Source of the DNA: Treponemataceae bacterium
Lineage (GTDB): Bacteria > Spirochaetota > Spirochaetia > Treponematales > Rectinemataceae
Direction: 5' to 3'
Length of the DNA: 64,000 bases
NCBI GenBank assembly: GCA_963667725.2
Contig: CAXXHO010000005.1
Coordinates: 512,001 to 576,000 of the forward strand
Part shown: positions 1,341-31,821 of the stretch, piece by piece
How the letters are laid out: each line of letters begins with the position of its first letter
How positions within the stretch are numbered: the stretch's first letter is position 1
Made by a program: the position numbers and the translations under genes
Notes under the pieces: model-generated
What the model was told of the DNA's origin: nothing
The model's database searches: none
The model's input: the letters and a program-made list of their open reading frames with translations, nothing else

Positions 1341-1503
1341 GTTAGAATTTTCACCCCAAAGAGCACTTTTTTCTTCTCTTCTCTTTAGCTTTATTATCTT
1401 CTTCTCTTCGTCGTTTTTTATATGCACGTATCATGCGAGAATAAGGGAAAGACGCACCGCTTCTCTTCCCTTTTCGAGCAGTATAACATTCAATAATTCT
1501 AAC
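1341..1503 (-). repeat. Gene-less cassette family A, copy 1 (TGtTATACT variant)
   Basis: 163-bp unit with self-complementary ends gttagaatt/aattctaac; hairpin at 1443-1472. Confidence 0.9.
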
Positions 1504-1636
1504 ATTCGTTTAACCTTTAAACCCGGCCGAGCGTAGCGAGGCATTGGCGCGATTCTTGCCTCACTCTAAAAAGCCCTTTTACTCTACGTTGTTTCGCAAG
1601 AATCGTGACAATAGGGTTTATAAGGTTGAAACGGTT

Positions 1637-1801
1637 GTTAGAATTTTCACCCCAATTGGCACTTCTTCTCTTTTCTTCTTTTTTCCATAAGATTTTTCTT
1701 ATCTTCGTTCCTTTTCTAACGACATAATGAATGCGAGAATAAGGGAAAGACGCACCGCTTCTCTTCCCTTTTCGAGCAGTATAACATTAAATAATTCTAA
1801 C
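1637..1801 (-). repeat. Gene-less cassette family A, copy 2 (diverged tail, TATACT variant, variant attC)
   Basis: Same hairpin and ends as copy 1; tail rewritten but still purine-rich on the minus strand. Confidence 0.88.
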
Positions 1802-1921
1802 ATTGGCTTAACCTTTAAAGCCTGTTCCTGAGCGAAGCGAAGGATTGGCGTGGTTTTTGCATGATCTTCTGGCAAAAACCATGCCAAAAGGCTTTATAAG
1901 GTTGAAGCAATTGTTAGAAGC

Positions 1922-2500
1922 TTATTGTTTTACTTTTCTACTTATTGTTTTATTATGATCTATTTCTAATAATCGTAACATACTATCCATATATTCTGGA
2001 TAAATATCGTTTTTATCATGAATTGGATCTCCCAAGCACATTGGAGAAGCAATCATCTCAAGGGGTTCTAATATCTTAATAGTATTAAAGTCACCCAATT
2101 TCCATACTTGTTTAAGAAATCTTTTATAATATCTGTCATTATCTGCAATAGATGCTATGTTTTGATAAAATATTGATACTCTTCTTCTATGGAAATGTAA
2201 TGAATCATCTATAACATTATTCTCATTTTTATATTTCTCAATATATTTCTGTATCATTAATACTTCACTTATGCTTTCAATATTCCCCGAATCTTTATCA
2301 CATTCTCTTTTTAAATCCCACAATTTTTTTAAGGATATTCCCATTTCTTTTGAGCCATACTGTTTATAAAGTTCATTAATAGTTTGATTTCTGTATAGTC
2401 TTTTTGATAATATCCATGCAAAAACAGAAATTAGCAATGCCATCAATGCTACAAAAACAACTCCAAATTCAGCAATTATTGATAGAGTACTTTTATCCAC
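1922..2500 (-). CDS. Hypothetical membrane-anchored cassette protein
   Basis: 192 aa, N-terminal TM helix, AGGAGG RBS. Confidence 0.75.
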   Translation of the reverse strand: MDKSTLSIIAEFGVVFVALMALLISVFAWILSKRLYRNQTINELYKQYGSKEMGISLKKLWDLKRECDKDSGNIESISEVLMIQKYIEKYKNENNVIDDSLHFHRRRVSIFYQNIASIADNDRYYKRFLKQVWKLGDFNTIKILEPLEMIASPMCLGDPIHDKNDIYPEYMDSMLRLLEIDHNKTISRKVKQ

Positions 2501-2694
2501 ATTATCCTCCTTTTAGTACCATTAATGCGCATTTAATATTATCATATTTAAATTTTATAATGCTTCTAACATTGGCTTAACCCTTAACGCCTGCTCCTGA
2601 GCGTAGCGAAGGATTGGCGTGGTTTGTGCATTGTTGTTCTGCACAAACCATGACAAAAGGCGTTATAGGGTTGAAGCATTTGTTAGACGAATCC

Positions 2695-3240
2695 TTATTT
2701 ACTACCCTTTTCACTTATTTTATATTTAAGCAATTCATTCAATACATAAGTTTCTCTTTCAATCCATTTCGTTTTCTTTTCAGAAGACTTCATCGTTTTT
2801 CTATTAACTTCTAATGCTTCTTTAATAGTTGTCCACTTTGGAATAAACATCAATTCTTTCTCATAATCATCAAGATTTTGACTATGTAAAGAATCTTCAA
2901 TTACAATTTCGTAGTAGGCTGATATCATTTTAAAATAATCAAATGTTTCTTCTTTAGATTTATTGTACTCAATTACTGTTCCAATTTTACATTTAATATC
3001 TACAATAGTTCCTCCAATTTCTTCATCTATTTCTCTAAATAATGCAATTTCTTGCGTTTCGTTATCTTCTACACCACCACCAGGAAATTTATATTCGTCA
3101 TTTGTTTTTGAATAAACCAAAAGTATCTGATTATTCTTAATAATTACTGCTCTTACAGCATTTCTACAAAATGATAATCCATTTAGATCTATATCTTTTT
3201 TATAAAATATCTCTTTGTTAAAAAGCATCGATCCTTCCAT
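2695..3240 (-). CDS. NUDIX hydrolase
   Basis: Nudix box GGGVEDNETQEIALFREIDEEIG. Confidence 0.9.
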   Translation of the reverse strand: MEGSMLFNKEIFYKKDIDLNGLSFCRNAVRAVIIKNNQILLVYSKTNDEYKFPGGGVEDNETQEIALFREIDEEIGGTIVDIKCKIGTVIEYNKSKEETFDYFKMISAYYEIVIEDSLHSQNLDDYEKELMFIPKWTTIKEALEVNRKTMKSSEKKTKWIERETYVLNELLKYKISEKGSK

Positions 3241-3447
3241 GATAAAATGTTACATACACAATTACACATATCAAGTTAACATTTTTACTAATTGCTTTAA
3301 TATGTATCTTTTTGCGCCGAAGGCGTCCGTCTAACATTGGCTTGACCCTTAACGCCCGCTCCTGAGCGAAGCGAAGGATTGGCGTGGTTTGTGCATTGTT
3401 GTTCTGCACAAACCATGACAAAGGGCGTTATAGGGTCGAAGCAGGTG

Positions 3448-3999
3448 TTAGAAGCTTTTTTTCTTATCTTCCTTATAGAAATCTTCTCGTACTATATCCA
3501 TAAAGATATCATTATGTCGTTCATTATTATAATAATGTGATCTTCTTCTCTCTCCCATTTTTTTAAACCCTACTTTCTCATAACTCTTTCTTGCTCGTAC
3601 ATTATAATCAAAAACTCTAAGCATTATGTTCTCTAATCCCAATATCCTGAATGAATAATCTATAAGTAATCGCAATGCTTCAGTTCCATAGCCTTTTCCC
3701 CAATACTCTTGATTGCCTATGAAGATTCCTACTTCTGATGTCTTATGTACATGGTTAACATTAATAAGTCCTACATTTCCGATTAGAGTATCGTTTTCGA
3801 TATCAATAACCCCATATACATGTTCTTTTGATAATCTTTGGAGAACTTCTTTTTCTGATTCCAATGTTATTACATTTGGCCCAGCAAGAAGATATTTGAA
3901 TACTTCTTCTGAATTGAGCCATTCTGCATACTGAGCAGCATCATCCATATTGATTGGTGCTAAATAACACTTTATACCAATCATTTTTCGAAAATACAT
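3448..3999 (-). CDS. GNAT acetyltransferase (RimJ/RimL/SpeG-like)
   Basis: YWGKGYGTEAL and NVRARKSYEKVGF motifs. Confidence 0.9.
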   Translation of the reverse strand: MYFRKMIGIKCYLAPINMDDAAQYAEWLNSEEVFKYLLAGPNVITLESEKEVLQRLSKEHVYGVIDIENDTLIGNVGLINVNHVHKTSEVGIFIGNQEYWGKGYGTEALRLLIDYSFRILGLENIMLRVFDYNVRARKSYEKVGFKKMGERRRSHYYNNERHNDIFMDIVREDFYKEDKKKSF

Positions 4000-4152
4000 T
4001 ACTTTCTCCTATTTCCTGGCGCCGGAGGCGTCCTTCTAACATTGGCTTAACCCTTAACGCCTGTTCCTGAGCGTAGCGAAGGATTGGCGTGGTTTTTGCG
4101 TGATCCTCTCGCAAAAACCATGACAAAAGGCATTATAGGGTTGAAGCATTTG

Positions 4153-4608
4153 TTAGGTATTTCCTCTTTCTTTACTATTGTATTCTACTTCGAATCCATT
4201 TTTTATTGTATATTTTACTTTTCCATCTTCCATGTTTTCTATCTTTATCATTTTTCTATTATATATTTCTTCATAATTTATTTTGATTCCTTTTTCATAA
4301 ACAAAGACTTTATTCCATATCTTTGAAGTATTCATAATCTCAATATAAAGATTGATTATTGTATTTATTATATATCCTACGATTAATAAGTAATTCTGAT
4401 CTTGGTTACATATCACAATCATCGTAATATTTGATAAAGTATAATTTGTAACTCCAAAAACATATTTATATGGAGTGTGAATACCTATCAAATACCCAAT
4501 ACCTATTTCTTTTCCTAGTCGTTTTGTAGTTCTATATTTATTCCAGGCTAAAGATAGCAAAGATAATACTGAGAGAATAATTGTCTTTACTATCATGCTT
4601 TTATTCAT
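4153..4608 (-). CDS. Hypothetical membrane protein (duplicated at 10396-10851)
   Basis: 151-aa hydrophobic ORF filling the cassette. Confidence 0.6.
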   Translation of the reverse strand: MNKSMIVKTIILSVLSLLSLAWNKYRTTKRLGKEIGIGYLIGIHTPYKYVFGVTNYTLSNITMIVICNQDQNYLLIVGYIINTIINLYIEIMNTSKIWNKVFVYEKGIKINYEEIYNRKMIKIENMEDGKVKYTIKNGFEVEYNSKERGNT

Positions 4609-4848
4609 CGAAAAGCCTCATTTTGATATATTTTTAAATATGCCATAATTAAAATTTATTTGATCTACAGAAGAACATATAATCTTTTTTCTTTGGGGCG
4701 AGCGAAGCGAGTCCACCTAACATTGGCTTAACCTTTAAATCCGTGCCCGAAGGGCTTGGCGTGGTTCTTGCGTAAAGGAGCGAAGCCACGAAGTGGCGAA
4801 GCGACTCGCAAGAACCATGACAAAGGATTTATAAGGTTGAAGCATGTG

Positions 4849-5184
4849 TTAGGATCGCTTTTTTTTACCACCTTCTTCTAGTAATCCAGTCTTTATATAC
4901 TTCTTCATCAATTCGTAAATATCTTTTTTATCACCGTCTTTTCTTATTCCAACAGCAATTATGATTACAATTATTTCTTTATCAAGAACTTTATAAATAA
5001 TCCTATATCGTTGTCCTACCGCACGAACTGACCGAAATTCTTTTAATGGACCTTTTAATGGCTTCCCTAATAATAATGGCTCTTCTTTTAATGATTCTAT
5101 CTTATTTATTACTTGATTCTGTGTCCTACTATCCAGCTTTTTGATATTATCAGCTGCAATTATAGTAAGCTTTATCTTATACAT
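4849..5184 (-). CDS. RelE/ParE family toxin
   Basis: GKPLKGPLKEFRSVRAVGQRYRIIY; overlaps the antitoxin gene. Confidence 0.9.
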   Translation of the reverse strand: MYKIKLTIIAADNIKKLDSRTQNQVINKIESLKEEPLLLGKPLKGPLKEFRSVRAVGQRYRIIYKVLDKEIIVIIIAVGIRKDGDKKDIYELMKKYIKTGLLEEGGKKKRS

Positions 5185-5443
5185 TTAAGCTCTTCTTAAA
5201 ATCTTCAAAATCAATAAGACTATCATTTTCGAACTGCTTTATCCCAATCTTTAGATCATCATATAAAGCCTCATCCGAAATGATATCTAAAGTCTCAGCA
5301 ATACTTTCGTATGTATCCCAACGAAGTAACGCAAAGACTTCTTTTCCATGATTGGTAACAGAGATTGTATCATTGAAAGAAAGATCATCCTCAAGAGAAG
5401 TGATCCTCTTCCTTGTTTCGGAGATTGATAACTGTTTAACCAT
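5177..5443 (-). CDS. Phd/YefM family antitoxin
   Basis: LSISETRKRI...VTNHGKEVFALL pattern; acidic C-terminus. Confidence 0.88.
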   Translation of the reverse strand: MVKQLSISETRKRITSLEDDLSFNDTISVTNHGKEVFALLRWDTYESIAETLDIISDEALYDDLKIGIKQFENDSLIDFEDFKKSLNV

Positions 5444-5459
5444 AATTACCTCTGAATAA

Positions 5460-5501
5460 ATGATACATTATATTGTACAATATGTCAATAATAATTGTAC
5501 A
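5460..5501 (-). promoter_or_regulatory. TA promoter with TGTACA operator palindromes
   Basis: TTGACA (5488-5483)-17-TATCAT (5465-5460); two TGTACA motifs. Confidence 0.8.
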
Positions 5502-5697
5502 TATTATTAATTACTGCTATTGTAATATGTTATATCGTTTCGATAAAGCTAGTCGTCCTAACATTTGTTTAACCTTTAAACCCGTCCCGAGCTACTGCGA
5601 GGGATTGGCGCGATTCTTGCAACACTCTAGTAAGCAGTAACATTCTAATTTGATATGCAAGAAGCGTGACAATAGGGTTTATAAGGTTGAAACGTTT

Positions 5698-5859
5698 GTT
5701 AGAATTTTCACCCCAAAGTGCACTTCTTTCTTCTCTTCTCTTTAACTTTTAATTTTCTTCTCTTCGTCGTTTTTTATAGGCACGTAACATGCGAGAATAA
5801 GGGAAAGACGCATCGCTTCTCTTCCCTTTTCGAGCAGCTGAACAACTAATAATTCTAAC
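5698..5859 (-). repeat. Gene-less cassette family A, copy 3 (TCAGCT variant, variant attC)
   Basis: Near-identical to copy 7. Confidence 0.9.
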
Positions 5860-5975
5860 ATTGGCTTAACCTTTAAATCCGTGCCCGTAGGGCTTGGCGT
5901 GGTTCTTGCGTTATCTTCTCGCAAGAACCATGCCAAAGGATTTATAAGGTTGAAGCAGTTGTTGGACGATTTCTC

Positions 5976-6371
5976 TTATTTCCAATCTTCTATTTTTAAA
6001 TTCTTGATTCTAGAAAACTCACCAGTATTATTTGTTACTAATACTAAGTCTTTAGCTATCGCTTGCGCAGCTATAAGCATATCATACGGTCCAATTAATA
6101 TTCCATTTTGCTTCAAATATGATCGTATCTTACCAAATTCTTCAGCATCATTATCATCAAAATTCAATACTGAAAAAGGAGCTATAAACTCTGTCAACGA
6201 TATTCTATTCTTTTCTATGTTTTGACTATTGTATACACCATATTGAAGTTCCGCTACTGTTATGCTTGATACATATACTTTCTTCTTAATTACTTCTTGC
6301 AGCCTTTGTAACACATGAGGAGGCTTCCCGTTCTTGATGAAGATGCAGGTATTAGTATCTAAGAGATACAT
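5976..6371 (-). CDS. vapC: VapC PIN-domain toxin
   Basis: YLLDTNTCI...IGPYDMLIAAQA...LVTNNTGEF. Confidence 0.95.
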   Translation of the reverse strand: MYLLDTNTCIFIKNGKPPHVLQRLQEVIKKKVYVSSITVAELQYGVYNSQNIEKNRISLTEFIAPFSVLNFDDNDAEEFGKIRSYLKQNGILIGPYDMLIAAQAIAKDLVLVTNNTGEFSRIKNLKIEDWK

Positions 6372-6601
6372 TATAGACCTTCTCTTTCTTGCATAGGAGG
6401 CTGTTCTCTTCCTTCACTCATAAAATCATCAGTAAACCCATTCAACCCATGTAAAAATGTTTCCCATTCTTTTCCTTTAGGAAATAGAATTACTGAAGAA
6501 CCTACCTTTTGAATGAGCACATCGGTACCAGGGAAATTATATTCTTTGGGTAAACGTACCGCTTGGCTACGTCCATTTTTAAACAATTTAGCTATTTGCA
6601 T
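6371..6601 (-). CDS. vapB: VapB (AbrB-type) antitoxin
   Basis: MQIAKLFKNGRSQAVRLPKEY; GGAGG RBS supports a start at 6601. Confidence 0.93.
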   Translation of the reverse strand: MQIAKLFKNGRSQAVRLPKEYNFPGTDVLIQKVGSSVILFPKGKEWETFLHGLNGFTDDFMSEGREQPPMQEREGL

Positions 6602-6621
6602 ATCATGCCTCCACACATTGA

Positions 6622-9903: not shown

Positions 9904-10120
9904 TTAATCACCATAGGTGTTTTAAATTTGTGCCTGAAGAATCCGTCTAACATATTTGATAACCTCTTAAAGATGTATCTTTTTGCGCGCGTAAGCGCGT
10001 CCGTCTAACATTGGCTTAACCCTTAACGCCTGTTCCCGAGCGAAGCGAGGGATTGGCGTGGTTTTTGCGTTATCTTCTCGCAAAAATCATGACAAAAGGC
10101 GTTATAGGGTTGAAGCTTTT

Positions 10121-10283
10121 GTTAGAATTTTCACCCCAAAGAGCACTTCTTTCTTCTCTTCTCTTTAACTTATCTATTTTCTTCTTTTCGTCGTTTTTTA
10201 TATGCACGTAACATGCGAGAATAAGGGAAAGACGCACCGCTTCTCTTCCCTTTTCGAGCAGCTGAACAATAAATAATTCTAAC
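10121..10283 (-). repeat. Gene-less cassette family A, copy 4 (TCAGCT variant)
   Basis: Near-identical to copy 10. Confidence 0.9.
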
Positions 10284-16911: not shown

Positions 16912-17625
16912 GGGGCTGCAGTAGATAAAGTCCTATGATAGACTCTAAAAGTGGCAATAAGTCATTGCAGGTTAAAGAAAAGTACTCAGACTCGATTATT
17001 GGAATATTTTGTGCTCGAGGTGACCGCTAGATCTGCGGCAAATTTACTTGGGATTCAACCAAATTCTGCTATCTTGTTTTACCGGAAAGTAAGGCAGGTA
17101 ATAGCCATTTATCTCGCCCGGGAAGCAGCAGAAATATTCAATGGTGACATCGAAATAGACGAAAGCTATTTCGGTGGTGTACGTAAAGGGAAACGTGGTC
17201 GGGGCGCTACAGGGAAAGTTGTCGTCTTTGGCATGCTAAAGCGTCATGGCAAGGTTTATACAGTAGTAGTCGAGAATACCAAGGCTGCGACCTTAATGCC
17301 TGTCATAGCCAATAAAATCAAGCCTGACAGTGTTGTCTACACGGATACTTATCGCAGTTATGATGCGTTGGACGTAACTGAATTTCATCACCATCGTATT
17401 AATCATTCAGAACTTTTCGCTGACAAGAAAAATCATATCAATGGAATTGAGAACTTCTGGAATCAAGCGAAGAGAGTACTGAGAAAATATAACGGGATTG
17501 ACAAGAAAAACTTTCCTTTGTTTCTTAAAGAGTGTGAGTTCCGATTCAACTATGGGACACCTGTGAATCAGTTGAAGATTCTACGAAAATGGTGTGGAAT
17601 CTAGAAGTTTATCTACGTCAGCCCC
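16912..17625 (+). mobile_element. IS1595-family (IS1016-like) insertion sequence, 714 bp
   Basis: IRs GGGGCTGcaGTAGATAAA / TTTATCTACgtCAGCCCC; 8-bp target duplication TTAATATA (16904-16911, 17626-17633). Confidence 0.93.
16951..17604 (+). CDS. IS1595-family DDE transposase
   Basis: EIDESYFGG, VYTD, HINGIENFW, LKECEFRFN. Confidence 0.95.
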   Translation: MAISHCRLKKSTQTRLLEYFVLEVTARSAANLLGIQPNSAILFYRKVRQVIAIYLAREAAEIFNGDIEIDESYFGGVRKGKRGRGATGKVVVFGMLKRHGKVYTVVVENTKAATLMPVIANKIKPDSVVYTDTYRSYDALDVTEFHHHRINHSELFADKKNHINGIENFWNQAKRVLRKYNGIDKKNFPLFLKECEFRFNYGTPVNQLKILRKWCGI

Positions 17626-20522: not shown

Positions 20523-20523
20523 C

Positions 20524-20820: not shown

Positions 20821-21022
20821 TAACTATGATTTTGATAAGTCTATCAAAAATCCCTATATTAATCGCTTGAAGAAATCTATTACTATCAGGCTTGATACTG
20901 ATACAATAAATTACTTCAAGACACTTTCGAAAGACTCGGGGATTCCTTATCAAACGCTGATAAACTATTTTCTTTCTCAATGTGCTAAAGATAAGAAAAA
21001 GCCTGAGGTTGTTTGGGGATAG
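20798..21022 (+). CDS. BrnA/CopG-like antitoxin
   Basis: KKSITIRLD...YFK...GIPYQTLIN. Confidence 0.9.
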   Translation: MKNTEMLDNYDFDKSIKNPYINRLKKSITIRLDTDTINYFKTLSKDSGIPYQTLINYFLSQCAKDKKKPEVVWG

Positions 21023-21197
21023 TAATGTTCTCTTATTTGGGCGCCGAAGGCGTCCGTCTAACATTCGTTTAACCTTTAAACCCGTCCCGAGCTACTGCGA
21101 GGGATTGGCGCGATTCTTGCCACACTCTAATTCGCACTAACATTCTACGGTGATATGCAAGAAGCGTGACAATAGGGTTTATAAGGTTGAAACGGTT

Positions 21198-21360
21198 GTT
21201 AGAATTTTCACCCCAAAGAGCACTTCTTTCTTCTCTTCTCTTTAACATCTCTATTTTCTTCTCTTCGTCGTTTTTTATATGCCTGTAAAATGCGAGAATA
21301 AGGGAAAGACGCACCGCTTCTCTTCCCTTTTCGAGCAGTATAACATTTAATAATTCTAAC
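21198..21360 (-). repeat. Gene-less cassette family A, copy 5 (TATACT variant, variant attC)
   Basis: Same unit as other copies. Confidence 0.9.
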
Positions 21361-21451
21361 ATTGGCTTAACCTGCGAGCCGTCGTGCGCTACTGCGCTAC
21401 CAGGGCATTATCAATTTAACATTGCATCTATTTATGCTTTTCAAACGCGAG

Positions 21452-21892
21452 TCAGGTTGAAGCTTTTGTTAGGTTATTTCTTTTCTCCAAATATATTAGA
21501 TTTGGATTTCCACAGAATAAACACATATCTCTATGCATACACAAATATTTGCCACATCTATCACATTGCCATTTAGCTTTTTCGTTCTTGATAAACTCTC
21601 TAATTCCCAATGTCTTTATATCCTCAAAGTTCTTATATATGTTCACATTATATCTATTAAAATATCTCTTTTCTAAATCCTTTATTCTTCTACATGGATA
21701 TTTCTTACATTTACTACATAATAGCTCTTTATTACCCTTTTTCTCTTCACAGTTCCTTATTCTACATTCTATGCAATGGTATGCCTTATGATCATCTGAT
21801 CCATTACATCCATTACAATGATTCTTATCCCTTTGATACGCTAAACAGAGACTACAATTTATTCCACAAGGCGCAAAATCTTTAGTTTTCAT
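21452..21892 (-). CDS. Cys-rich DUF3795-like protein
   Basis: APCGINCSLC...CNGC...CSKCKKYPC...CDRCG...CLFCG. Confidence 0.8.
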   Translation of the reverse strand: MKTKDFAPCGINCSLCLAYQRDKNHCNGCNGSDDHKAYHCIECRIRNCEEKKGNKELLCSKCKKYPCRRIKDLEKRYFNRYNVNIYKNFEDIKTLGIREFIKNEKAKWQCDRCGKYLCMHRDMCLFCGNPNLIYLEKRNNLTKAST

Positions 21893-22086
21893 TATGCTAA
21901 AAGAAGCGATTTAGCCAGTTCATAATCCTTTTCGCTAACGAGTATTGTTGCAGCTATACTATATGATGCTGGTCTTTGGCCTCCGCTATCATCTGACTGA
22001 ATGATGTAGGGAATATTTTCTTTATCCAGGATGGTAGCGAAGAATTCCGCTTCAAACCTATTTTGGAATTGCTTAAGTTTGACCAT
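21892..22086 (-). CDS. DUF2007-like small protein
   Basis: GAGGAG RBS; EAEFFATILDKENIP...ILVSEKDYELAKSLL. Confidence 0.75.
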   Translation of the reverse strand: MVKLKQFQNRFEAEFFATILDKENIPYIIQSDDSGGQRPASYSIAATILVSEKDYELAKSLLLA

Positions 22087-22290
22087 ACTATCTCCTCTCT
22101 TATTGGCTCGAAGCGTCAATCTAACATTCTCAATTATTAGTTTAGCATGTATCTTTGCGCGCCGAAGGCGTCAACCTAACATTGGCTTAACCTTTAAAGC
22201 CTGGCCTGAGCGAAGCGAAGGATTGGCGTGGTTTTTGCGTAATCTTCAAGCAAAAACCATGACAAAAGGCTTTATAAGGTTGAAGCTATT

Positions 22291-22453
22291 GTTAGAATTT
22301 TCACCCCAAAGCGCACTTTTTTATTCTCTTCTCTTTAGCTTTATTATCTTCTTCTCTTCGTCGTTTTTTATAGGCACGTAACATGCGAGAATAAGGGAAA
22401 GACGCACCGCTTCTCTTCCCTTTTCGAGCAGCTGAACAATAAATAATTCTAAC
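22291..22453 (-). repeat. Gene-less cassette family A, copy 6 (TCAGCT variant)
   Basis: Same unit as other copies. Confidence 0.9.
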
Positions 22454-22564
22454 ATTGGCTTAACCCTTAACGCCTGCTCCTGAGCGAAGCGAAGGATTGG
22501 CGTGGTTTTTGCATTGTTGTTCTGCAAAAACCATGACAAAAGGCGTTATAGGGTTGAAGCATTT

Positions 22565-23055
22565 GTTATATGCTTTTCTTTTATCAATAATCTTCTATGC
22601 TTTCGTTTTCTTAATTACTATTCAATTTTTTATTATAGTTTTCTATAATCTTATTTCTATTTATTCTCTTATTATCATATATTATTCATTTTTACTATAA
22701 TTTTCTTGAAGTAAACTTAAAATATTGAAGCGCTATACTTTTAGATCATGAAGAATACGAAAGCATCCTTCAATCGAAAGCCAGCTTTCATATTCGGCTG
22801 CTTTCGTATTCTTCAATATTCTTGTAAGTATTCTTATAATATTTTTGATTTTTTTAGTCTTCTATTATTTCTTTTAAATATTTATCGCAATAATAGAAAA
22901 TATGACACACTATCACAATGGAATCATAAAAAGGATTTCGAGGACCAAGGCACAAGATAAAATATAGTATTATCAAAGAGATCACTAAAAATCTTTTACC
23001 GATGCACTCAATCTTTGGTCTTTCTTGCGCGCCGCGTCAGCGGCGTCCATATAAC
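22565..23055 (-). other. Gene-less cassette family B, copy 1 (490 bp, structured)
   Basis: No convincing ORF; 17-bp perfect inverted repeat at 22749-22765 / 22799-22815; duplicate at 37393-37883. Confidence 0.75.
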
Positions 23056-23190
23056 ATTTGTTTAACCTTTAAACCCGTCCCGAGCTACTGCGAGGGATTG
23101 GCGCGATTCTTGCAACACTCTAGTAAGCAGTAACATTCTACAGCGATATGCAAGAAGCGTGACAATAGGGTTTATAAGGTTGAAACGTTT

Positions 23191-23352
23191 GTTAGAATTT
23201 TCACCCCAAAGAGCACTTCTTTCTTCTCTTCTCTTTAACTTTTAATTTTCTTCTCTTCGTCGTTTTTTATAGGCACGTAACATGCGAGAATAAGGGAAAG
23301 ACGCATCGCTTCTCTTCCCTTTTCGAGCAGCTGAACAACTAATAATTCTAAC
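23191..23352 (-). repeat. Gene-less cassette family A, copy 7 (TCAGCT variant, variant attC)
   Basis: Near-identical to copy 3. Confidence 0.9.
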
Positions 23353-23463
23353 ATTGGCTTAACCTTTAAAGCCTGGCCTGAGCGTAGCGAAGGATTGGCA
23401 CGCTTTTTGCATTGTTGTTCTGCAAAAAGCGTGCCAAAAGGCTTTATAAGGTTGAAGCATGTG

Positions 23464-24756
23464 TTAGGAAGTTACTATTTCATCAATTATTTCTTTTTCA
23501 CTATCTATTTTATCATAATCGCATTTAAATACTTCTTTATAAGCATCTTTAAATTCTTTTGTATCTCGAAATAATTCAAATAGTGGCCATTCATGATAAA
23601 ATATCTGTGGAAGTTCGTCTGTATTACCTATTTTTATCATTATTTTACTACTCAATACCCAATCTTTTTGAAGAACAGCTTTAGCAAGCAAAAACTTATC
23701 AGAACAATCAGACCAATCAAGCTTTTCTATCTGCTTCTTAACTTCTTCATCTTTATTTAATAAATAATATGTGATTATATTATTAATTGAAACAATCATG
23801 TCTTCAATTCTATTAAGCTTACTATAGATTTTTAAATACTTAATGAGATTCCTAACAATACTATAGTTTTTATATTCTAGGTTATCATATATATAAGTTA
23901 TCAATAGATTTTTACCAATTTCAATATTTTCAGGATGTAATTTTTTTATAATAAATGATGTAATTTTACCTGCTATTTCAATAAGTACAAATACACTATC
24001 GTAAAAATAGTCTGGATCGGTATACAATTCATCACCAATATTTGGACACTGTTTAAATGTAAATCCCTCTTGAATACAAGTATTTATATATTGACTAGTT
24101 ACAATACCATTAGTATGTACATATAAATTTCTTCTTTCTGTCAACTCAACAAATTTTGATATTAGCTCTTTATCATCTTTTATTGAACCGTTAATTTTTT
24201 TCGATATCCATTCTAATTGCTTAATATGGCTACCACGCATTACTGCATCAATTTCTTCATTTATTATTGCACTTTGATATTCTTCTATTGTTTTATATTT
24301 GATGAGCTCAGTATATGATATCTGCTTACATGAATCATTTAGCAAATTAGGTTTTAATGTTAGCATAAATTTAATTGTATCTGAAATATACTTATCAAAT
24401 TGACTTACAAGAGTAACAATTACACTCTTGTTAATTATACTGAACGCTCTATCATACTTGTCTTCATTATCTTGTAATATTTTGAACTTTTTTAAATAGA
24501 CTAAAGGTAACGCAAATTGCATACCATTATCATTCTCTTTAATATTGGTACATTTTTCTTTAATAAACTTCATCATATCTTTATGTGATTTTTGATGTTT
24601 TTCATTTATTGTCATTATCGTTATAGGTAATACATCTCTTAAAGTAATTGCATTATCTAAATATGTAGATAATATTTTGCTATACCCATTAATTGGACTG
24701 TCTGATTCTTGATTAGATTTCTCTTCTGGAACTTCTACACATTCTGAATTATCCAA
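23464..24756 (-). CDS. Hypothetical protein with HEPN-like RxxxxH motif
   Basis: 430 aa, helical; ELTERRNLYVHTNG; AGGAGG RBS with TTG start. Confidence 0.7.
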   Translation of the reverse strand: MDNSECVEVPEEKSNQESDSPINGYSKILSTYLDNAITLRDVLPITIMTINEKHQKSHKDMMKFIKEKCTNIKENDNGMQFALPLVYLKKFKILQDNEDKYDRAFSIINKSVIVTLVSQFDKYISDTIKFMLTLKPNLLNDSCKQISYTELIKYKTIEEYQSAIINEEIDAVMRGSHIKQLEWISKKINGSIKDDKELISKFVELTERRNLYVHTNGIVTSQYINTCIQEGFTFKQCPNIGDELYTDPDYFYDSVFVLIEIAGKITSFIIKKLHPENIEIGKNLLITYIYDNLEYKNYSIVRNLIKYLKIYSKLNRIEDMIVSINNIITYYLLNKDEEVKKQIEKLDWSDCSDKFLLAKAVLQKDWVLSSKIMIKIGNTDELPQIFYHEWPLFELFRDTKEFKDAYKEVFKCDYDKIDSEKEIIDEIVTS

Positions 24757-24928
24757 TTTTTCCTCCTAATCTTCCTAACATTGGCTTAACCTTTAACGCT
24801 CGCTCCCGAGCGAAGCGAGGGATTGGCGCGCATCTTGCGTAAAGGAGCGACGCCACGATAGTGGCGAAGCGACGCGCAAGATGCGTGACAAAGAGCGTTA
24901 TAAGGTTGAAGCATGTGTTGGACAGTTC

Positions 24929-25513
24929 TTATTTAAATAATTCTTCAATTTTTATCCTATTCTCATATTCTTCAATATATTTCTCTATATTTTCTTCATT
25001 TATTGAATCATATATTTCAATAACGCTATTTTTACTTATATAGTATGGTTCATCTAAAAGCCCAAATGTTCTTTTCTCAAACATCCTTCCTTCGATAACA
25101 AGATAATGTTCATTTTCATTGACAGAATAAAATAGCATTTTAAAAATAATATTTTCTTTTATATATTCGTCATTATTTTTTTTCTTATATAATATCTTTG
25201 TATCAAAAATAGATTCTGGAATTTCTTTATATATCTCAACTTGATTTGTAACTGCTATTTCTTCCCAATTAAGATATTTTTCTAATACTGCCTTTAAATG
25301 CTTTATATCTTCTACTGTAAATTCTAAAAGCCCGTTATCATCGCCTAATAGAAAAGTCCCATCTTCATTATTAAATAAAAGTTCAATGTTTTGCATGATG
25401 AAGTTATTCTCAGTTTTTCTTTCTCCAGCAATTTCTAGTATTAATGAGTTATTTGCATAGATTGGTTGTACTGTCGATATTAAGAAATATAGCATTATTA
25501 TTGCTATAGTCAT
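24929..25513 (-). CDS. Hypothetical exported protein
   Basis: Signal-like N-terminus; GGAGG RBS. Confidence 0.65.
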   Translation of the reverse strand: MTIAIIMLYFLISTVQPIYANNSLILEIAGERKTENNFIMQNIELLFNNEDGTFLLGDDNGLLEFTVEDIKHLKAVLEKYLNWEEIAVTNQVEIYKEIPESIFDTKILYKKKNNDEYIKENIIFKMLFYSVNENEHYLVIEGRMFEKRTFGLLDEPYYISKNSVIEIYDSINEENIEKYIEEYENRIKIEELFK

Positions 25514-25674
25514 TAATCCTCCAATTACAATGTATTATTTAACAATCCCTTAATCTGTCCAACATTGGCTTAACCTTTAAAGCCTGGCCCGAGCTACTGC
25601 GAGGGATTGGCGTGGTTTTTGCGTAATCTTCAAGCAAAAACCATGACAAAAGGCTTTATAAGGTTGAAGCTTTT

Positions 25675-25837
25675 GTTAGAATTTTCACCCCAAAGCGCAC
25701 TTCTTTCTTCTCTTCTCTTTACCTTATCTATTTTCTTCTCTTCGTCGTTTTTTATATGCACGTATCATGCGAGAATAAGGGAAAGACGCACCGCTTCTCT
25801 TCCCTTTTCGAGCAGTATAACATTTAATAATTCTAAC
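25675..25837 (-). repeat. Gene-less cassette family A, copy 8 (TATACT variant)
   Basis: In tandem with copy 9. Confidence 0.9.
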
Positions 25838-25948
25838 ATTGGCTTAACCCTTAACGCCTGTTCCCGAGCGAAGCGAGGGATTGGCGTGGTTTTTGCGTCA
25901 TCTTCTCGCAAAAATCATGACAAAAGGCGTTATAGGGTTGAAGCTTTT

Positions 25949-26111
25949 GTTAGAATTTTCATCCCAAAGCGCACTTCTTTCTTCTCTTCTCTTTAACATC
26001 TCTATTTTCTTCTCTTCGTCGTTTTTTATATGCACGTAACATGCGAGAATAAGGGAAAGACGCACCGCTTCTCTTCCCTTTTCGAGCAGCTGAACAACAA
26101 ATAATTCTAAC
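25949..26111 (-). repeat. Gene-less cassette family A, copy 9 (TCAGCT variant)
   Basis: In tandem with copy 8. Confidence 0.9.
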
Positions 26112-26222
26112 ATTGGCTTAACCTTTAAAGCCTGGCCTGAGCGAAGCGAAGGATTGGCGTGGTTTTTGCGTCATCTTCTCGCAAAAACCATGACAAAAGG
26201 CTTTATAAGGTTGAAGCGTTTG

Positions 26223-26720
26223 TTAGATTCTTTTCACATATTCATATGCTACTTTTTCATATCCGTATTTTTGGAAAAACTGATGAGCTTTTATATTATT
26301 GATTGAACTTGCTAAACCGATCTTTGATATATTATTTTCTTTAGCAAATCTTTCTATAAACTTTATCATCTCATTTCCAATACCTTTTCTACGATATTTA
26401 TCAGCAGTAACGATATCAGATATTTCAATATATTTTTCATCTTTATTTATTTTAATTATTGCAATTGTAATCGTTTCATTAATTCCACTAAAAAATGCTT
26501 TAATTACCCTAATATTATTTTCTTCCTTAACTAATGTTTTTATTAAAGATTCAGAAAAATCTTTCTTCCATTCAAATTTATCATTTATTCGGCCTTCTGC
26601 AATATCTAATAAAGTATAATAGTCTTTACATGTTGTGGATTTTATAAAATTAGAACAATTGTATAGCTCATTTAAATTATGGCTATCTATAAACTCCACT
26701 ACAATAGAATTATTTTCCAT
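26223..26720 (-). CDS. GNAT acetyltransferase
   Basis: YRRKGIG and NIKAHQFFQKYGY. Confidence 0.88.
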   Translation of the reverse strand: MENNSIVVEFIDSHNLNELYNCSNFIKSTTCKDYYTLLDIAEGRINDKFEWKKDFSESLIKTLVKEENNIRVIKAFFSGINETITIAIIKINKDEKYIEISDIVTADKYRRKGIGNEMIKFIERFAKENNISKIGLASSINNIKAHQFFQKYGYEKVAYEYVKRI

Positions 26721-27010
26721 ATTTATTACCCTAGTTGTCGAATGTTGAAGTAAAACAAACTATTAGTACATTTTTTTTTACACATTTCTTATAAATGAAT
26801 CTAACATTAGCTTAACCTTTAAATCCTTGCCTGAGCTACTGCGAAGGCTTGGCGTGGTTTGTGCATTGTTGTTCTGCACAAACCATGCCAAAGGATTTAT
26901 AAGGTTGAAGCAGTTGTTAGGTTTTTAATATATGCTAAATATGAATAAATAGATTATTTGTGTAATAAATATATTTTTTTTTAACCTTTATTATAATTTA
27001 TTAGCTATCT

Positions 27011-28300
27011 TTACAAATTTAACATTTTATCTTTTAGATAGGAAGGATTCCAAAATTCTTTTTCAAAGTATCTTTTTACTTCTTCTTGTTTTTCTTGCAT
27101 ATAATTTAAAATATTTTTTGAATTATCTTTTAAGATAGCATAAATTGCCCTATCTATAAGTCCCCTTTTACAATAATCTTGAAATATTTTATCTATTTCT
27201 TCTAGATTTAATCTTTTTCTATATGGCCTATCTTCTGCTAAAGCGGTAAATATATCTGCAATTCCCATTACTCTTGCTCCAGTATTTAGTCTTTCTGCTT
27301 TAATATGAAATGGATATCCCGAACCATCTAGTCGCTCATGATGAAAAGCAGCCCATTCAGAAATTCTTCTTATCCCATCACTTAGAGAATTTATAATACT
27401 ATATGTATAATATGTATGTTGACGCATAATAGCCATTTCTTGATTAGTAAGTGGTCCAGGCTTATTTAGAATTGAATTAGGTACTACAAGCTTACCAATA
27501 TCATGAAAATTACCTGCAACTTTCATGAGCTTTATCTCTGATTCCGCATATCCAGAATACATAGCAATTTGAGAAGCGACAGATGCTACTCCTGTTGAAT
27601 GCGTAGCTGTAAATGGAGATCTAAAATCTATTATGTTCCTAAATAGCACTGAAATATCTATTGCTGACTGCGTATCAATATTTATATTTCGAACAGGGGC
27701 AGTGTTTTGAAGCAATGAATAAAGCTTTATTGATACAATATCCAACCAAAAATCTTCTCTAATAGCTAAATCTGTAAAGACATTCACCAAATATGGGTTT
27801 ATCTCGGTTCCAGACATCTTTTTAATTCTATCAACAATATCTCTATTTTGATATAAAATATATACTTTCCTATCAATTGATCTTTCAACTGTATCTGCTA
27901 ATTTTAGTATTTGCGCATAATACAAATTTGATCTTTGATCATTGCTATTGCCTAATTCCCATGAAATATGATGATATAATACAATTTTAGATAATGGTAT
28001 AAATAGCGGAAGTGTACTTAACAATCGTTCCCCTAATACACAATGCCTATTAACATACTTTTCTTTCCCCATATAGATAGCCACTTTTTCTTCTGAGGAA
28101 AGAGCACCAATATCATGTAACAATGCAGCAATAAATAGATTTTCTTTTTCTTTTTCATCCAGATTTAGTTGTTGTGCTAATTCCATAACAATGAAAGCTG
28201 TTCTTATTTGATGCTGTGATAAATCTGGACTAGCTAAATCCAGTGCATCTGATAAAGCTAATAGAATATTTGCAAGACTCACTTTGGTGTTTAAGTACAT
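27011..28300 (-). CDS. HD-GYP family phosphodiesterase (tandem HD domains)
   Basis: LLHDIG, FHDIGK, HHERLDGSGYP, DRPYR. Confidence 0.92.
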   Translation of the reverse strand: MYLNTKVSLANILLALSDALDLASPDLSQHQIRTAFIVMELAQQLNLDEKEKENLFIAALLHDIGALSSEEKVAIYMGKEKYVNRHCVLGERLLSTLPLFIPLSKIVLYHHISWELGNSNDQRSNLYYAQILKLADTVERSIDRKVYILYQNRDIVDRIKKMSGTEINPYLVNVFTDLAIREDFWLDIVSIKLYSLLQNTAPVRNINIDTQSAIDISVLFRNIIDFRSPFTATHSTGVASVASQIAMYSGYAESEIKLMKVAGNFHDIGKLVVPNSILNKPGPLTNQEMAIMRQHTYYTYSIINSLSDGIRRISEWAAFHHERLDGSGYPFHIKAERLNTGARVMGIADIFTALAEDRPYRKRLNLEEIDKIFQDYCKRGLIDRAIYAILKDNSKNILNYMQEKQEEVKRYFEKEFWNPSYLKDKMLNL

Positions 28301-28537
28301 CTATTACCTCTTTATCAATAATTGTTTAAGGTTTAATAGTAAATCTATGTGTTAACTAACATATAGTGATTTAGCTGTTAGCATAATTGCTAAACCCCAT
28401 TTTTTATAATTTTAATAAACCTAACGTTGGCTTAACCTTTAACGCTCGCTCCCGAGCATAGCGAGGGATTGGCGTGGTTTGTGCATTGTTGTTCTGCACA
28501 AACCATGACAAAGAGCGTTATAAGGTTGAAGCAGCTG

Positions 28538-29176
28538 TTAGGTTTGCGTTTTTCTATTTCTTAACACTATTTCCCATACATTTTTAGGTTTTTTATATCT
28601 ACTTACAATATTCTCTTCCATAGTAATTATTTCCCAATTATCATCAATAATTCTATCAATATCATCTTTTTCAAAGAAACGTTTTTTCTCCCCTAAATAC
28701 CTATAGTAATTTTTCTCAATCTCTTTGCCCTTTCCAGCTCCCCAATTACTATCTTTTATTGAGTTAACCCTAAAAGCAAAGAGTCCATCATTTTCTAATA
28801 CTCTACATATTTCACAAAATATCTCTTTTGTCTTTTCCCAAGAGAAATAATGCAATGATAAGTCTGCTATTACTGCACGAAAACTATTGTCAGTAAATGG
28901 TAATGGATCTCTTATATCATGTAGTACAGTATGTGCTTTAGGTAAATACTTACTTATCTTCTTTAATGAAACTGCAGAATAGTCACAGGATACTATACTA
29001 ATTCCTTTCTCAAGCAGATATTTTGTATTATTTCCTGATCCACATCCTAAATCTAAAACAGGTTTCTCATTTATTTTTAATTGGCCCATATACTTATCAA
29101 GCCACAAGTCATATACAATCTCATTATTCATCGATTCGGAGAATAGGAAATCCCATTTTACTTTAGTTGCATCCAT
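28538..29176 (-). CDS. Class I SAM-dependent methyltransferase
   Basis: VLDLGCGSG. Confidence 0.9.
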   Translation of the reverse strand: MDATKVKWDFLFSESMNNEIVYDLWLDKYMGQLKINEKPVLDLGCGSGNNTKYLLEKGISIVSCDYSAVSLKKISKYLPKAHTVLHDIRDPLPFTDNSFRAVIADLSLHYFSWEKTKEIFCEICRVLENDGLFAFRVNSIKDSNWGAGKGKEIEKNYYRYLGEKKRFFEKDDIDRIIDDNWEIITMEENIVSRYKKPKNVWEIVLRNRKTQT

Positions 29177-29333
29177 AAAACCTCATAATTGATATACTTA
29201 GCTAAACCTAACATTGGCTTAACCTTTAAATCCGTGCCTGAGCGAAGCGAGGGCTTGGCGTGGTTCTTGCGCAATCTTCTCGCAAGAACCATGACAAAGG
29301 ATTTATAAGGTTGAAGCATGTGTTAGAGGTTTC

Positions 29334-30140
29334 TTACTTTTTATCATGCAACATATGTTCTTTAAAAAACTCAATGATGTATGATAAGGATTCTTCAGGT
29401 ATTTCATGTCCAGAATTGTTGATATACGTCTTAACTGGAGCATCTATTATTGAATCATACTCGTTTACATTATTATTAATGATTCTTCCTACTCCACATT
29501 TATTAATATTAAGTACTATATTTGCCATTTCCATTTGCCATGAAAACTTAACAAGTGGATCTTTTCTTCCTGCCACAAGAAATACTGGTTTTGGTTCTAG
29601 TTTGTTTCTATCTTCCTTTGATGGTAGTATTCCAGCTATTGGAGCGACTGCGGCAAGCACATTACCTCTCGCTGCCCATAATACATAGGTAAAAACAGCT
29701 CCATTAGAAAAGCCAATAGAGTATATTCTAGTTTTATCTACTGAGTAATTACTATTAAGATATTGAAATAGTTTATCGAAAAACTCGATATCTCTTCCAT
29801 TTTGATCATCTACAGAACTTTGCCAACCTGGAAATTTGCCTTCCGGGTCAACGAGATTTGTGGGTGTATTTAATCCTTGTGGATAAACAACTATTGCCTC
29901 AGGCCAAAACTTTTCTATATGAAAGCGCAAAGCTGCTGATTTCATTGAACCGCCGTGGCCATGAAAAGCAAACACGATAGGATGCAAAGCATTATTTATG
30001 TTTGATGGAATATAGATTTCTGCATTTCTAATAATTCCATTAACTTCAATAGACACAGATTCTAATCCGAACACAGGAAACAAAAACAATATTTCTAATA
30101 AAAAGAATAGTAAAGCTTTTCGCTGCCATCTCATTTGCAT
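29334..30140 (-). CDS. Exported alpha/beta-hydrolase (LpqC/PHB-depolymerase-like esterase)
   Basis: FHGHGG, VYPQG, GFSNG, D and GH motifs; the ORF-track N-terminus is read through the attC. Confidence 0.85.
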   Translation of the reverse strand: MQMRWQRKALLFFLLEILFLFPVFGLESVSIEVNGIIRNAEIYIPSNINNALHPIVFAFHGHGGSMKSAALRFHIEKFWPEAIVVYPQGLNTPTNLVDPEGKFPGWQSSVDDQNGRDIEFFDKLFQYLNSNYSVDKTRIYSIGFSNGAVFTYVLWAARGNVLAAVAPIAGILPSKEDRNKLEPKPVFLVAGRKDPLVKFSWQMEMANIVLNINKCGVGRIINNNVNEYDSIIDAPVKTYINNSGHEIPEESLSYIIEFFKEHMLHDKK

Positions 30141-30292
30141 GTCCTTTACTATATTTGCAGCTAATACCTCTAACATTGGCTTAACCTTTAAATCCGCGCC
30201 TGAGCTACTGCGAAGGCTTGGCGTGGTTTGTGCATGGGGTTTCTGCACAAACCATGACAAAGGATTTATAAGGTTGAAGCAGGTGTTAGGCG

Positions 30293-30859
30293 CTATTTTC
30301 TTAATTTAAATTCAAAGCCAAATTTTACTTCTAATGCTAAAATTTCCTTTTTAACCTCTTTTGCTTTTTCTTTTATATCCAAATCAATTAGTATTTTATC
30401 AATTTTACTAATTAATATTTCTAATTCATTTAATGGCATATCATTAGCAACAAGGCAGTATAATCCTTTCGATTTTCCATCATTATACTTTTCTAATAAT
30501 ATCTTTAAATACTTTTGTCTTTTACCTAAATCGGTTTCATATTTTTTAATATCATTTTTTGCTTCTATAAAATTCTGTTTTACACTTCTATATGATATAA
30601 ATGAATCACATTTGCTTTCTTCTTGATATTTTTTACATGGGTATTCACTGCATTGAAAACAATATTCCACATTATCATGTTTTCTATTGCATGTTTCTAC
30701 TGCACAAGTTGGATGCTGAGTTGAAAAGTTTTCTCCGCCACAGCCTGGACATTTCGAACTTCCATCAGTATTAAATCTTGGGCACAAACTGCAATTTAAT
30801 CCACAAAGAGAAAACAAAGGATTTTTTCGTATAAAAGGTATCATCTCTACTCCAGACAA
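30293..30859 (-). CDS. DUF3795-like protein, duplicate of 19689-20255
   Basis: One amino-acid difference (P to L). Confidence 0.8.
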   Translation of the reverse strand: MSGVEMIPFIRKNPLFSLCGLNCSLCPRFNTDGSSKCPGCGGENFSTQHPTCAVETCNRKHDNVEYCFQCSEYPCKKYQEESKCDSFISYRSVKQNFIEAKNDIKKYETDLGKRQKYLKILLEKYNDGKSKGLYCLVANDMPLNELEILISKIDKILIDLDIKEKAKEVKKEILALEVKFGFEFKLRK

Positions 30860-31116
30860 AGCATAATGCCTATTCAGTCTTTATTTATCTTTGCGCGCGA
30901 AGCGCGTCCGCCTAACATTGGCTTAACCCTTAACGCCTGCTCCTGAGCGAAGCGAAGGATTGGCGTGGTTTGTGCATTGTTGTTCTGCACAAACCATGAC
31001 AAAAGGCGTTATAGGGTTGAAGCATTTGTTAGAAATCTTCCCCTTATCTCTTTAGGTCTTAATTATTGTCTTTAATAAATCTCTTATTCTTTCTTAATTT
31101 TCTTAGAATCTTCTCT

Positions 31117-31467
31117 TTATTCAAAAATATCTTCTTTATTCTCGTATTTAATATAGTCTTCTCTTCTTGGGCTAAAGACTTCTATAGCTACTGAATCCTC
31201 AAGTATTTCAGCTTTATGATTAGCATTTGACAAAATTGTCCAACTATCACCAGGATGTAATACTTTAGATTTCCCATCAATAAAGAGCCTAATGCTACCT
31301 TTTACAAGATATCCAGTTTGTTCATTTATATGCTTATGTTCGGGAAGTGAAGAACCTTTTTGGAGTAAGAATTCAACAAGTAATGAATTTTCTCCATAGC
31401 TAAGAGTCTTAATGCTTATACCATGGATGATTTCTTTGTATCCATTTCTCGATGCAATGCCGAACAT
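31117..31467 (-). CDS. Cupin-domain protein
   Basis: PEHKHINEQTGY...GDSWTI..NANH...EVFSPRREDY. Confidence 0.88.
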   Translation of the reverse strand: MFGIASRNGYKEIIHGISIKTLSYGENSLLVEFLLQKGSSLPEHKHINEQTGYLVKGSIRLFIDGKSKVLHPGDSWTILSNANHKAEILEDSVAIEVFSPRREDYIKYENKEDIFE

Positions 31468-31658
31468 ATGCTTTTCTCCATCATGTTGATTAATAATTAC
31501 TGCAATGAACTATAAATATTCTTCCTGCGCGGGAGCGTCTTTCTAACATTGGCTTAACCCTTAACGCCTGTTCCCGAGCGAAGCGAGGGATTGGCGTGGT
31601 TTTTGCGTTATCTTCTCGCAAAAATCATGACAAAAGGCGTTATAGGGTTGAAGCTTTT

Positions 31659-31821
31659 GTTAGAATTTTCACCCCAAAGAGCACTTCTTTCTTCTCTTCT
31701 CTTTAACTTATCTATTTTCTTCTTTTCGTCGTTTTTTATATGCACGTAACATGCGAGAATAAGGGAAAGACGCACCGCTTCTCTTCCCTTTTCGAGCAGC
31801 TGAACAACTAATAATTCTAAC
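31659..31821 (-). repeat. Gene-less cassette family A, copy 10 (TCAGCT variant)
   Basis: Near-identical to copy 4. Confidence 0.9.

Follow-up and report, generated by a model that had tools for sequence, protein, structure and literature searches.

Why should an integron hold one cassette many times over when that cassette carries no gene? The question is raised by a 64,000-nucleotide stretch of a Treponemataceae bacterium (assembly GCA_963667725.2, contig CAXXHO010000005.1, positions 512,001 to 576,000; hereafter the window), in which a profile search found 51 attC recombination sites and in which 10 of the 51 cassettes belong, as a first-pass annotation had already stated, to a single gene-less family with bodies of about 163 bp. 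That annotation proposed a mobile structured RNA or regulatory module read from the cassette top strand. We find that the family is amplified near attI, that it contains a hairpin under selection and a neighboring tract conserved in composition, and that it carries no coding signal. From the substitutions and folding energies described below, we infer that the conserved element faces antisense, that is, along the bottom strand of the cassette.

The conserved hairpin and the adjoining tract

The family was aligned as 26 distinct full-length copies, with 9 exact duplicates and 5 truncated copies left out. Across this alignment, 8 of 47 columns vary at cassette positions 23-69, against 48 of 81 at positions 70-150. 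The search pattern used for metagenomes fixed positions 1-9 and 25-35 and so inflated conservation there; the hairpin nevertheless remains conserved where this bias does not reach, with 6 of 34 columns variable at positions 36-69. The 11 copies from the source genome give the same picture (3 of 47 variable columns in the hairpin block against 39 of 81 in the tail). P-values attached to this conservation are overstated, as alignment columns are not independent. The earlier description of a near-invariant hairpin thus holds, since 8 of the 10 window copies carry its 30-nt string unchanged and the other two differ by one loop base, but its extent was drawn too short: the conserved hairpin is 45 nt long and spans positions 25-69. 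A small stem reported for most copies is intact in 8 of 10. The second copy, starting at 1637, was correctly singled out as having a rewritten tail and an unchanged hairpin, as it shows no difference from the consensus at positions 23-69 and 34 differences elsewhere.

In the reference copy (copy 4) the hairpin lies at 10215-10259 and fits the plus strand of the window, the cassette bottom strand, where it forms 17 pairs with a tandem GA/AG and two bulges. All 17 pairs of this bottom-strand fold are held in all 26 copies, and paired sites show 4 changes where about 34 were expected. Each of the four is a one-sided stem change that leaves a G.U pair on the bottom strand and an A.C mismatch on the top. 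Under neutrality the probability that four of four changes keep pairing is 0.003, and that of the strand choice alone is 0.046. As RNA, the hairpin folds at -18.0 kcal/mol on the bottom strand and at -15.9 on the top (z -3.5 vs -2.2), and the bottom fold places the tandem GA/AG where the top strand shows a pyrimidine loop. Tandem GA pairs are stabilising. Folding of the whole cassette gives no stable top-strand structure (z -0.65) and a borderline bottom-strand one (z -1.96). A database translation, P0004, most parsimoniously implies G44A together with C50T at the DNA level, and these would form a compensatory pair reached through the G.U state seen in locus L020. Taken together, these data lean toward the bottom strand without amounting to proof, and the RNA of about 130 nt that had been expected to start at the hairpin on the top strand runs counter to both the substitutions and the RNA energies. 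Rfam, named earlier as a place to look, gave no covariance-model match at gathering score in window positions 1-40500, and for copy 4 the best E value was 0.5.

On the bottom strand the hairpin is preceded by an unstructured, C/U-rich tract of 60-70 nt, located in copy 4 at 10144-10201 on the plus strand (cassette positions 83-140) and purine-rich when read on the cassette top. Purines make up 88% of the consensus tail on the top strand (0.84 to 0.88 among copies), a value reached by none of 20,078 windows in other cassettes at 10-nt steps and equaled by the best of 231 other cassettes at single-base steps. Within 70 nt of the bottom strand, C exceeds G by 14 and there are 14 dimers of pyrimidine followed by C (YC); both measures are reached by 123 of 5594 other bottom-strand windows. 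Folding energies of the tract lie between 0 and -3.6 kcal/mol in all 26 copies. The sequence itself drifts (31 of 58 columns vary), and in copy 2 it is rewritten while the composition is kept. Rho utilization (rut) sites are likewise defined by composition, being C-rich, G-poor, unstructured and built of YC repeats (PMC9160355), and the bottom-strand tract, with C above G, many YC dimers and little structure, shows the composition of a Rho-dependent terminator. Genes for Rho and NusB are present in the host. The proteins TRAP and Hfq have A/G-rich binding motifs; TRAP was not found in the genome, and neither was Hfq, at 97% genome completeness.

Next to the R'' box, the flank TGGGGT is conserved, with 1 change against 8.3 expected at positions 146-154. 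Conserved TATT and GAAA flanks also occur in other cassettes (14 and 10 of 222), so that only TGGGGT is specific to the family. Antitermination, one of the functions first suggested, was rejected: positions 139-146 agree with the E. coli boxA consensus (PMC13753749) in its first 8 letters only and then run into GGGG, position 142 varies in 11 of 26 copies, and the boxA-like motif of the host internal transcribed spacer differs. Two further likenesses were rejected. With the host 23S leader, 12 of 13 letters agree, a score reached by 367 of 3000 random segments, and an attI look-alike on the bottom strand has scores reached by 1 to 121 of 300 shuffles and equally high in other cassettes.

Copies, mobility and kin

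All ten start positions in the first-pass annotation are exact. The bodies lie on the minus strand, each with its own attC as had been described: copy 1 at 1341-1503 (attC 1225-1346, hairpin 1435-1479), copy 2 at 1637-1801 (139-nt attC 1498-1642, hairpin 1733-1777), copy 3 at 5698-5859 (long attC 5557-5703), copy 4 at 10121-10283 (attC 10004-10126), copy 5 at 21198-21360 (long attC 21057-21203), copy 6 at 22291-22453 (attC 22175-22296), copy 7 at 23191-23352 (long attC 23052-23196), copy 8 at 25675-25837 (attC 25558-25680), copy 9 at 25949-26111 (attC 25832-25954) and copy 10, the eighth cassette from attI, at 31659-31821 (attC 31542-31664). Copies 1 and 2 stand in tandem, as do copies 8 and 9, again in agreement with the earlier description. 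Copy 3 is flanked by two toxin-antitoxin cassettes and copy 5 adjoins a reverse-oriented BrnT/BrnA cassette. The window copies measure 162-165 bp with a mean column identity of 93%. Their self-complementary cores are real but not distinctive, as complementarity of 8-10 bp between the two ends is found in 170 of the 234 cassettes parsed. The long attC sites at 5557-5703, 21057-21203 and 23052-23196 carry in their loops TTG(T/G)CA-19-TA(G/A)A(A/G)T, which is found in 11 of 26 gene-less and 8 coding cassettes; as a promoter (TTG(T/G)CA-19-TAnnnT) it was rejected for its overlong spacer and its presence on coding cassettes.

Of 13 copies in the genome, all but one belong to this array; the exception lies at position 1653902 of contig C3. 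The leading 50 of the 167 cassettes contain ten of the 12 array copies (p=1e-4), and the family is the shortest of the 258 cassettes parsed in the genome. Its spacing is not regular, with 69% of random placements equally even. Downstream of the ten window copies stand five plain coding, two toxin-antitoxin and three gene-less cassettes, among which no neighbor preference is visible. Each member has what defines an integron gene cassette, namely its own attC with R'' and R' cores in an array with attI and intI. At C3, and at a matching site in loci L020 and L024, the cassette comes first behind an attI-like leader with no nearby integrase, and in genome G050 it takes the first position at an unrelated site, followed by a reverse-transcriptase-like gene. 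Neither of these two unrelated sites has an integrase nearby. Such varied neighbors and first positions at other platforms are an indirect sign of integrase mobility. Copies also swap attC sites: where two bodies agree to 90% or more, the attC sites do so in 13 of 45 pairs, compared with 19 of 30 pairs from other families. In assembled contigs of four runs from one sample, joints over 21000-27000 fall at attC repeats, where they carry no information. The notion of a mobile, gene-less, non-protein cassette with a selected structured element is sustained, the hairpin block being more conserved than the rest.

Selection on a peptide finds no such support. An ATG forms at the cassette junction and its frame crosses the body. 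This frame had been said to stop at different places in different copies, which is true of 6 of 10 window copies, whereas it is open through the whole body in the other 4 and in 19 of 26 distinct copies. Synonymous, nonsynonymous and stop changes number 22/54/5 against 19.8/56.0/5.3 expected, a neutral pattern without purifying selection on codons, and 194 of 3000 shuffles have an open frame by chance. Junction ATGs are in frame with main genes in 55 of 188 cases, not above chance. The 21 protein-database matches are all at least 80% identical, range from 55 to 137 aa and lack a Pfam domain; they are gene calls of inconsistent length on the same cassette family. The earlier view that the constraint is not on protein is thereby borne out.

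Homologues were found in close kin only. A DNA search of 69 genomes of the bacterial family gave one full-length copy outside the source genome, in G050 of the same genus, and a covariance-model search again gave G050 only; the copy at locus L118 is identical to it. Among 30 metagenome loci, 21 are true copies, almost all between attC sites, and the other 9 are chance matches, as are 71 of 72 GTDB pattern matches; all 4 viral matches trace to one chance match in an unrelated coding region. The plasmids and phages searched gave no match. This range is a lower bound, as many relatives' assemblies are fragmented and arrays may be missing. In another Treponematales family, loci L137-L141 (genomes G214 and G113) contain a repeated 200-bp divergent-promoter module with a hairpin after TTTACA-17-TAGAAT, and in G214 the arms of this hairpin are identical to the arms that the hairpin of the 163-bp family has on the bottom strand. 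We rejected this hairpin as a homologue, as it belongs to a promoter repeat outside integrons and has arms that vary between the five copies; the likeness is probably convergent.

What the bottom strand may do

We tentatively rank first a reading in which the family is a minimal mobile gene-less cassette whose bottom-strand cargo would act as a Rho-type one-way valve against antisense transcription. Antisense RNA arriving from cassettes downstream, or started at the TGnTAGAAT site of the cassette itself, would meet the rut-like tract, pause at the hairpin and be released by Rho. The sense strand would be read through, having almost no C in the tract and often an open frame, at small cost to downstream genes, and high copy number would arise from integrase duplication of a very short cassette rather than from host-chosen spacing. 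The valve is placed first because it explains the order of tract and then hairpin as well as a tract defined by composition. The putative entry site, TTTATA-16-TGnTAGAAT on the plus strand at 21178-21205 (also 22271-22298 and 23171-23198), is a consensus match made of the cassette's own attC arm and R'' box, and it points antisense into the body at all three copies scanned (copies 5-7). Promoter-like sites in the scanned region total 9, at the level of shuffles (7.5 +/- 3.0), and in Vibrio cassettes promoter predictions do not track measured activity (Blanco, bioRxiv 10.1101/2023.11.21.568050). Intrinsic terminators, sought as a GC-rich stem followed by a U tract, were found on neither strand at 21000-23500, which covers the same three copies.

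Several observations weigh against the valve. DNA folding energies are equal on both strands (-9.7 and -9.8), so that a role on single-stranded DNA fits as well. The four stem changes are singletons, and two-sided, compensatory changes are seen in DNA at 0 of 17 pairs among copies that are 94% alike. Copies are mosaics, with all four gametes in 52 of 153 informative pairs, and gene conversion could be inflating conservation. Unpaired hairpin bases are conserved as well (3 of 11 vary, with about 11 changes expected); this is more than a pause hairpin needs and suggests a specific binder. A C>G bias of the bottom strand runs through the entire array. Tandem copies and random spacing make host-level insulation redundant, and this redundancy, like the conserved loop and bulge bases, is explained less well by the valve and favors a selfish role on single-stranded DNA. 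Finally, Rho inhibition left the reporter output of Vibrio gene-less cassettes unchanged (Blanco, bioRxiv 10.1101/2023.11.21.568050).

That selfish role is possible at a somewhat lower probability. In it, the hairpin and tract on the single-stranded bottom strand would recruit the integrase or a host factor for single-stranded DNA and thereby raise the cassette's own excision and reinsertion, so that selection would act on the cassette and not on the host. The bottom strand is the one recombined by the integrase (PMC5371416), and selfishness is one of the two options left open by Boucher 2006 (PMC1382264). Random spacing, two tandem pairs, no neighbor preference and strong conservation despite redundancy all speak for it. 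So does the folding behavior of the body, which stays unpaired with its attC (a median of 0.01 cross pairs) and leaves R-box pairing at 0.99, vs 0.93 in 77 others; the resulting advantage over ordinary cassettes in attC interference is, however, small (0.01 vs 0.04). Amplified gene-less families with long hairpins, each particular to its array, occur elsewhere in the genome as well, and in 2 of the 3 integrons that have an integrase such a family occupies the first position at attI. On the other side, the energies favor one strand only when RNA parameters are used, and the genome's GC skew is too weak for the array's orientation to replication to be read from it. In Loot 2017 (PMC5371416) a consistent length effect is reported only at 1500 bp or more and in one orientation. 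More generally, and with slightly less conviction than we attach to the valve itself, we suggest that integrons may carry their own parasite or punctuation, one family per array lineage, either as a bottom-strand valve or as a self-recombination boost on single-stranded DNA resembling a miniature inverted-repeat transposable element. Neither the valve nor the boost was found described for cassettes in the full-text literature searched, from which most subscription papers fall outside coverage; within the same limits, for subscription journals, no literature was found on boxA and integrons or on Rho termination and antisense transcription in cassette arrays.

A sense promoter is unlikely here; the literature gives it a strong prior, but the promoter is not what is conserved. 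It would require that an extended -10, created at the junction of the upstream attC (...ATG) with TTAGAAT, restart downstream transcription, with the hairpin as 5' stabiliser or operator. Sense promoter activity was measured in 25 of 30 Vibrio gene-less cassettes, four species summed (Blanco, bioRxiv 10.1101/2023.11.21.568050), and also in Treponema cassettes without an open reading frame (PMC6557892). Within the limits set by the core, no hexamer comes closer to a -10 than TAGAAT, which also arises where cassettes join on the top strand and is almost exclusive to this family (13 of 234 junctions), and the look-alike hairpin of another Treponematales family follows a TTTACA-17-TAGAAT site. Yet no part of the cassette varies more than the bases that follow the junction -10 (9 of 10 columns), and the -10-like region once described as a fixed part of the layout is not fixed, as the second box TGTTATACT is present in a minority of copies (4 of 10 in the window, 8 of 26 distinct). 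Copies 5-7 have no sense promoter-like site inside them, with the region total at shuffle level, and 5 of 10 downstream neighbors are toxin-antitoxin or gene-less cassettes. At C3 the upstream leader already has a promoter-like TTGACT-16-TATCAT, and the stem changes break the top fold.

What probability remains is shared by a small RNA, a peptide and mechanisms not listed here. It is improbable that the bottom strand encodes a trans-acting antisense RNA of about 130-140 nt, running from the promoter-like site to the hairpin and pairing through its C/U tract with purine-rich mRNA. Promoter-like site, single-stranded tract and terminal hairpin do stand in small RNA order, the TGGGGT flank is conserved, and an integron-borne, antisense-oriented small RNA exists in sRNA-Xcc1 (bioRxiv 10.1101/2025.06.18.660453). 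Against this, pairing of the tract with the first 150 nt of other cassettes is no better than with shuffles (-18.0 vs -18.4 kcal/mol), the tract sequence drifts, the genome yielded no Hfq, and neither an intrinsic terminator nor an Rfam match was called. A small peptide or leader, translated from the junction ATG through body and attC and coupled to the next cassette, is very improbable: upstream-cassette translation does govern polar effects (PMC11511950) and the frame is open in most distinct copies, but substitutions are neutral, the frame is broken in most window copies and at chance in shuffles and in its agreement with main genes, and the protein matches are close, of variable length and without domains.

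Array setting and known cassette families

The array comprises 168 attC sites over about 150 kb, and the first 38 kb of the window are its attI-proximal end. Cassettes in the window read on the minus strand. The integrase gene at 38877-40295, with Phage_integrase and SAM domains, reads in the same direction, which makes this a reverse integron, a layout described for Treponema denticola (PMC6557892). The attI core, a 15-mer at 38716-38730 on the minus strand, recurs next to each of the genome's two other integron-type integrases, so that all three adjoin an identical attI motif. Other cargo includes a DDE transposase gene inside a cassette at 32238-33794 and an insertion-sequence-type 217-aa open reading frame on the plus strand of a cassette at 16951-17604, with a second occurrence at C3:1618064. 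In 132 of 222 cassettes, across all arrays, GACG directly follows the 8-bp core and is usually followed by a small GC-rich hairpin, and 46 cassettes have AAGA just before R''; this pattern at cassette ends is possibly a signature of cassette genesis.

Further gene-less families were seen in the same genome. One of about 230 bp, in the same array but outside the window (C5:470305-487774), has 6 copies including one tandem pair and occupies an older array stretch than the 163-bp family. It has an internal stem of 19-20 bp, the ends of which copy the core of the cassette itself (GTTAGAA..TTCTAAC), and the stem competes with the attC R box in folding (pair probability 0.12 vs 0.93). A gene-less cassette of about 495 bp is present in two identical copies, at window positions 22565-23054 and 37393-37882; its long central hairpin starts with GAAGAATAC, and the stem start is shared with a 562-bp family of contig C1. 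Gene-less families also come first at attI in both other integrons (C1 attI, 34234; C7 attI, 38149). In genome G010 (locus L148), the first 450 bases behind attI resemble the C7 family by eye, and in G008 the first cassette is coding.

At C3 the lone 163-bp copy belongs to an array of 14 attC sites without an integrase, inside a phage-like region (C3:1636345-1654600). This array has two copies, 70% alike, of a 560-bp leader with a promoter-like site and an attI-like end, and the leader hairpin before the 163-bp copy has 11 letters in common with an arm of the cassette hairpin. A run of several hundred G near 1,216,300-1,216,700 of the same contig is probably an assembly artefact. In G050, the cassette after the lone 163-bp copy encodes the reverse-transcriptase-like gene in two overlapping frames (L136:9696-10863; RVT_1). 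About 23 dispersed long palindromes of CAGGA repeats (C4:69287-100954, C5:676713-756902 and C6:4914-31666) separate tandem genes, which appear to encode ATP-binding and GxxExxY proteins; no literature linking GxxExxY with palindromes was found. Of the 19 genomic occurrences of the 13-mer AAGAGAAGAGAAG, 10 fall in 163-bp cassettes and 9 coincide with, or lie close to, these palindromes on C4, C5 and C6.

Since 2006 it has been asked whether gene-less cassettes that become amplified are selfish or act as regulators of their array (PMC1382264). Later work showed promoter activity and, in the available parts of those reports, did not address the role of the conserved sequence (Blanco, bioRxiv 10.1101/2023.11.21.568050; PMC6557892). 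The present family is small, its one conserved element has sharp limits, and natural variants occur to either side of it, so a few mutants should tell apart roles in termination, promotion of transcription and recombination. If true, either an antisense terminator that is mobile or a cassette that promotes itself would call for new models of how large arrays are expressed and turned over.

The 163-bp family is a new family of an already described class, the paralogous non-coding cassettes. Like the Vibrio cassettes of Boucher 2006 (PMC1382264), it is gene-less, conserved over its whole length, highly paralogous (up to 45 copies in that report) and narrow in range, with gene conversion suspected and the same choice between selfish and regulatory roles; absence of a coding signal, whole-length conservation, paralogy and narrow range were all found here, while some copies exceed the open reading frame cut-off of that class through a neutral open frame of more than 150 bp. 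Unlike the Vibrio cassettes, it resides in a spirochaete reverse integron, measures about 280 bp with its attC, and has a defined bottom-strand hairpin and a pyrimidine tract, features for which that report, in its available parts, gives no counterpart. The Vibrionaceae gene-less cassettes of Blanco (bioRxiv 10.1101/2023.11.21.568050) are likewise scattered in a large array and show sense and antisense activity, cassette F1 silencing an upstream gene, but they measure 491-666 bp and their activity was assayed, whereas our data are of sequence only and the hairpin, not the promoter boxes, is conserved. The Treponema cassettes without open reading frames from oral metagenomes (Tansirichaiya 2019, PMC6557892) also belong to spirochaete reverse integrons, and one of them, TMB4, stands in first position and is active on both strands; the family described here differs in being amplified 13-fold in one genome, and the two are likened by description, not by sequence. 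The sRNA-Xcc1 cassette of Xanthomonas (bioRxiv 10.1101/2025.06.18.660453) is similarly non-coding and oriented against the promoter Pc, but it comes with symE and spans 13 species, whereas the present family matches nothing in Rfam. With Rho-dependent terminators (PMC9160355) the family shares a C-rich, G-poor, unstructured tract of YC repeats in a host that has Rho; unlike the known examples, the candidate terminator, as judged from its base composition and order, would be packaged as a mobile cassette and face antisense.

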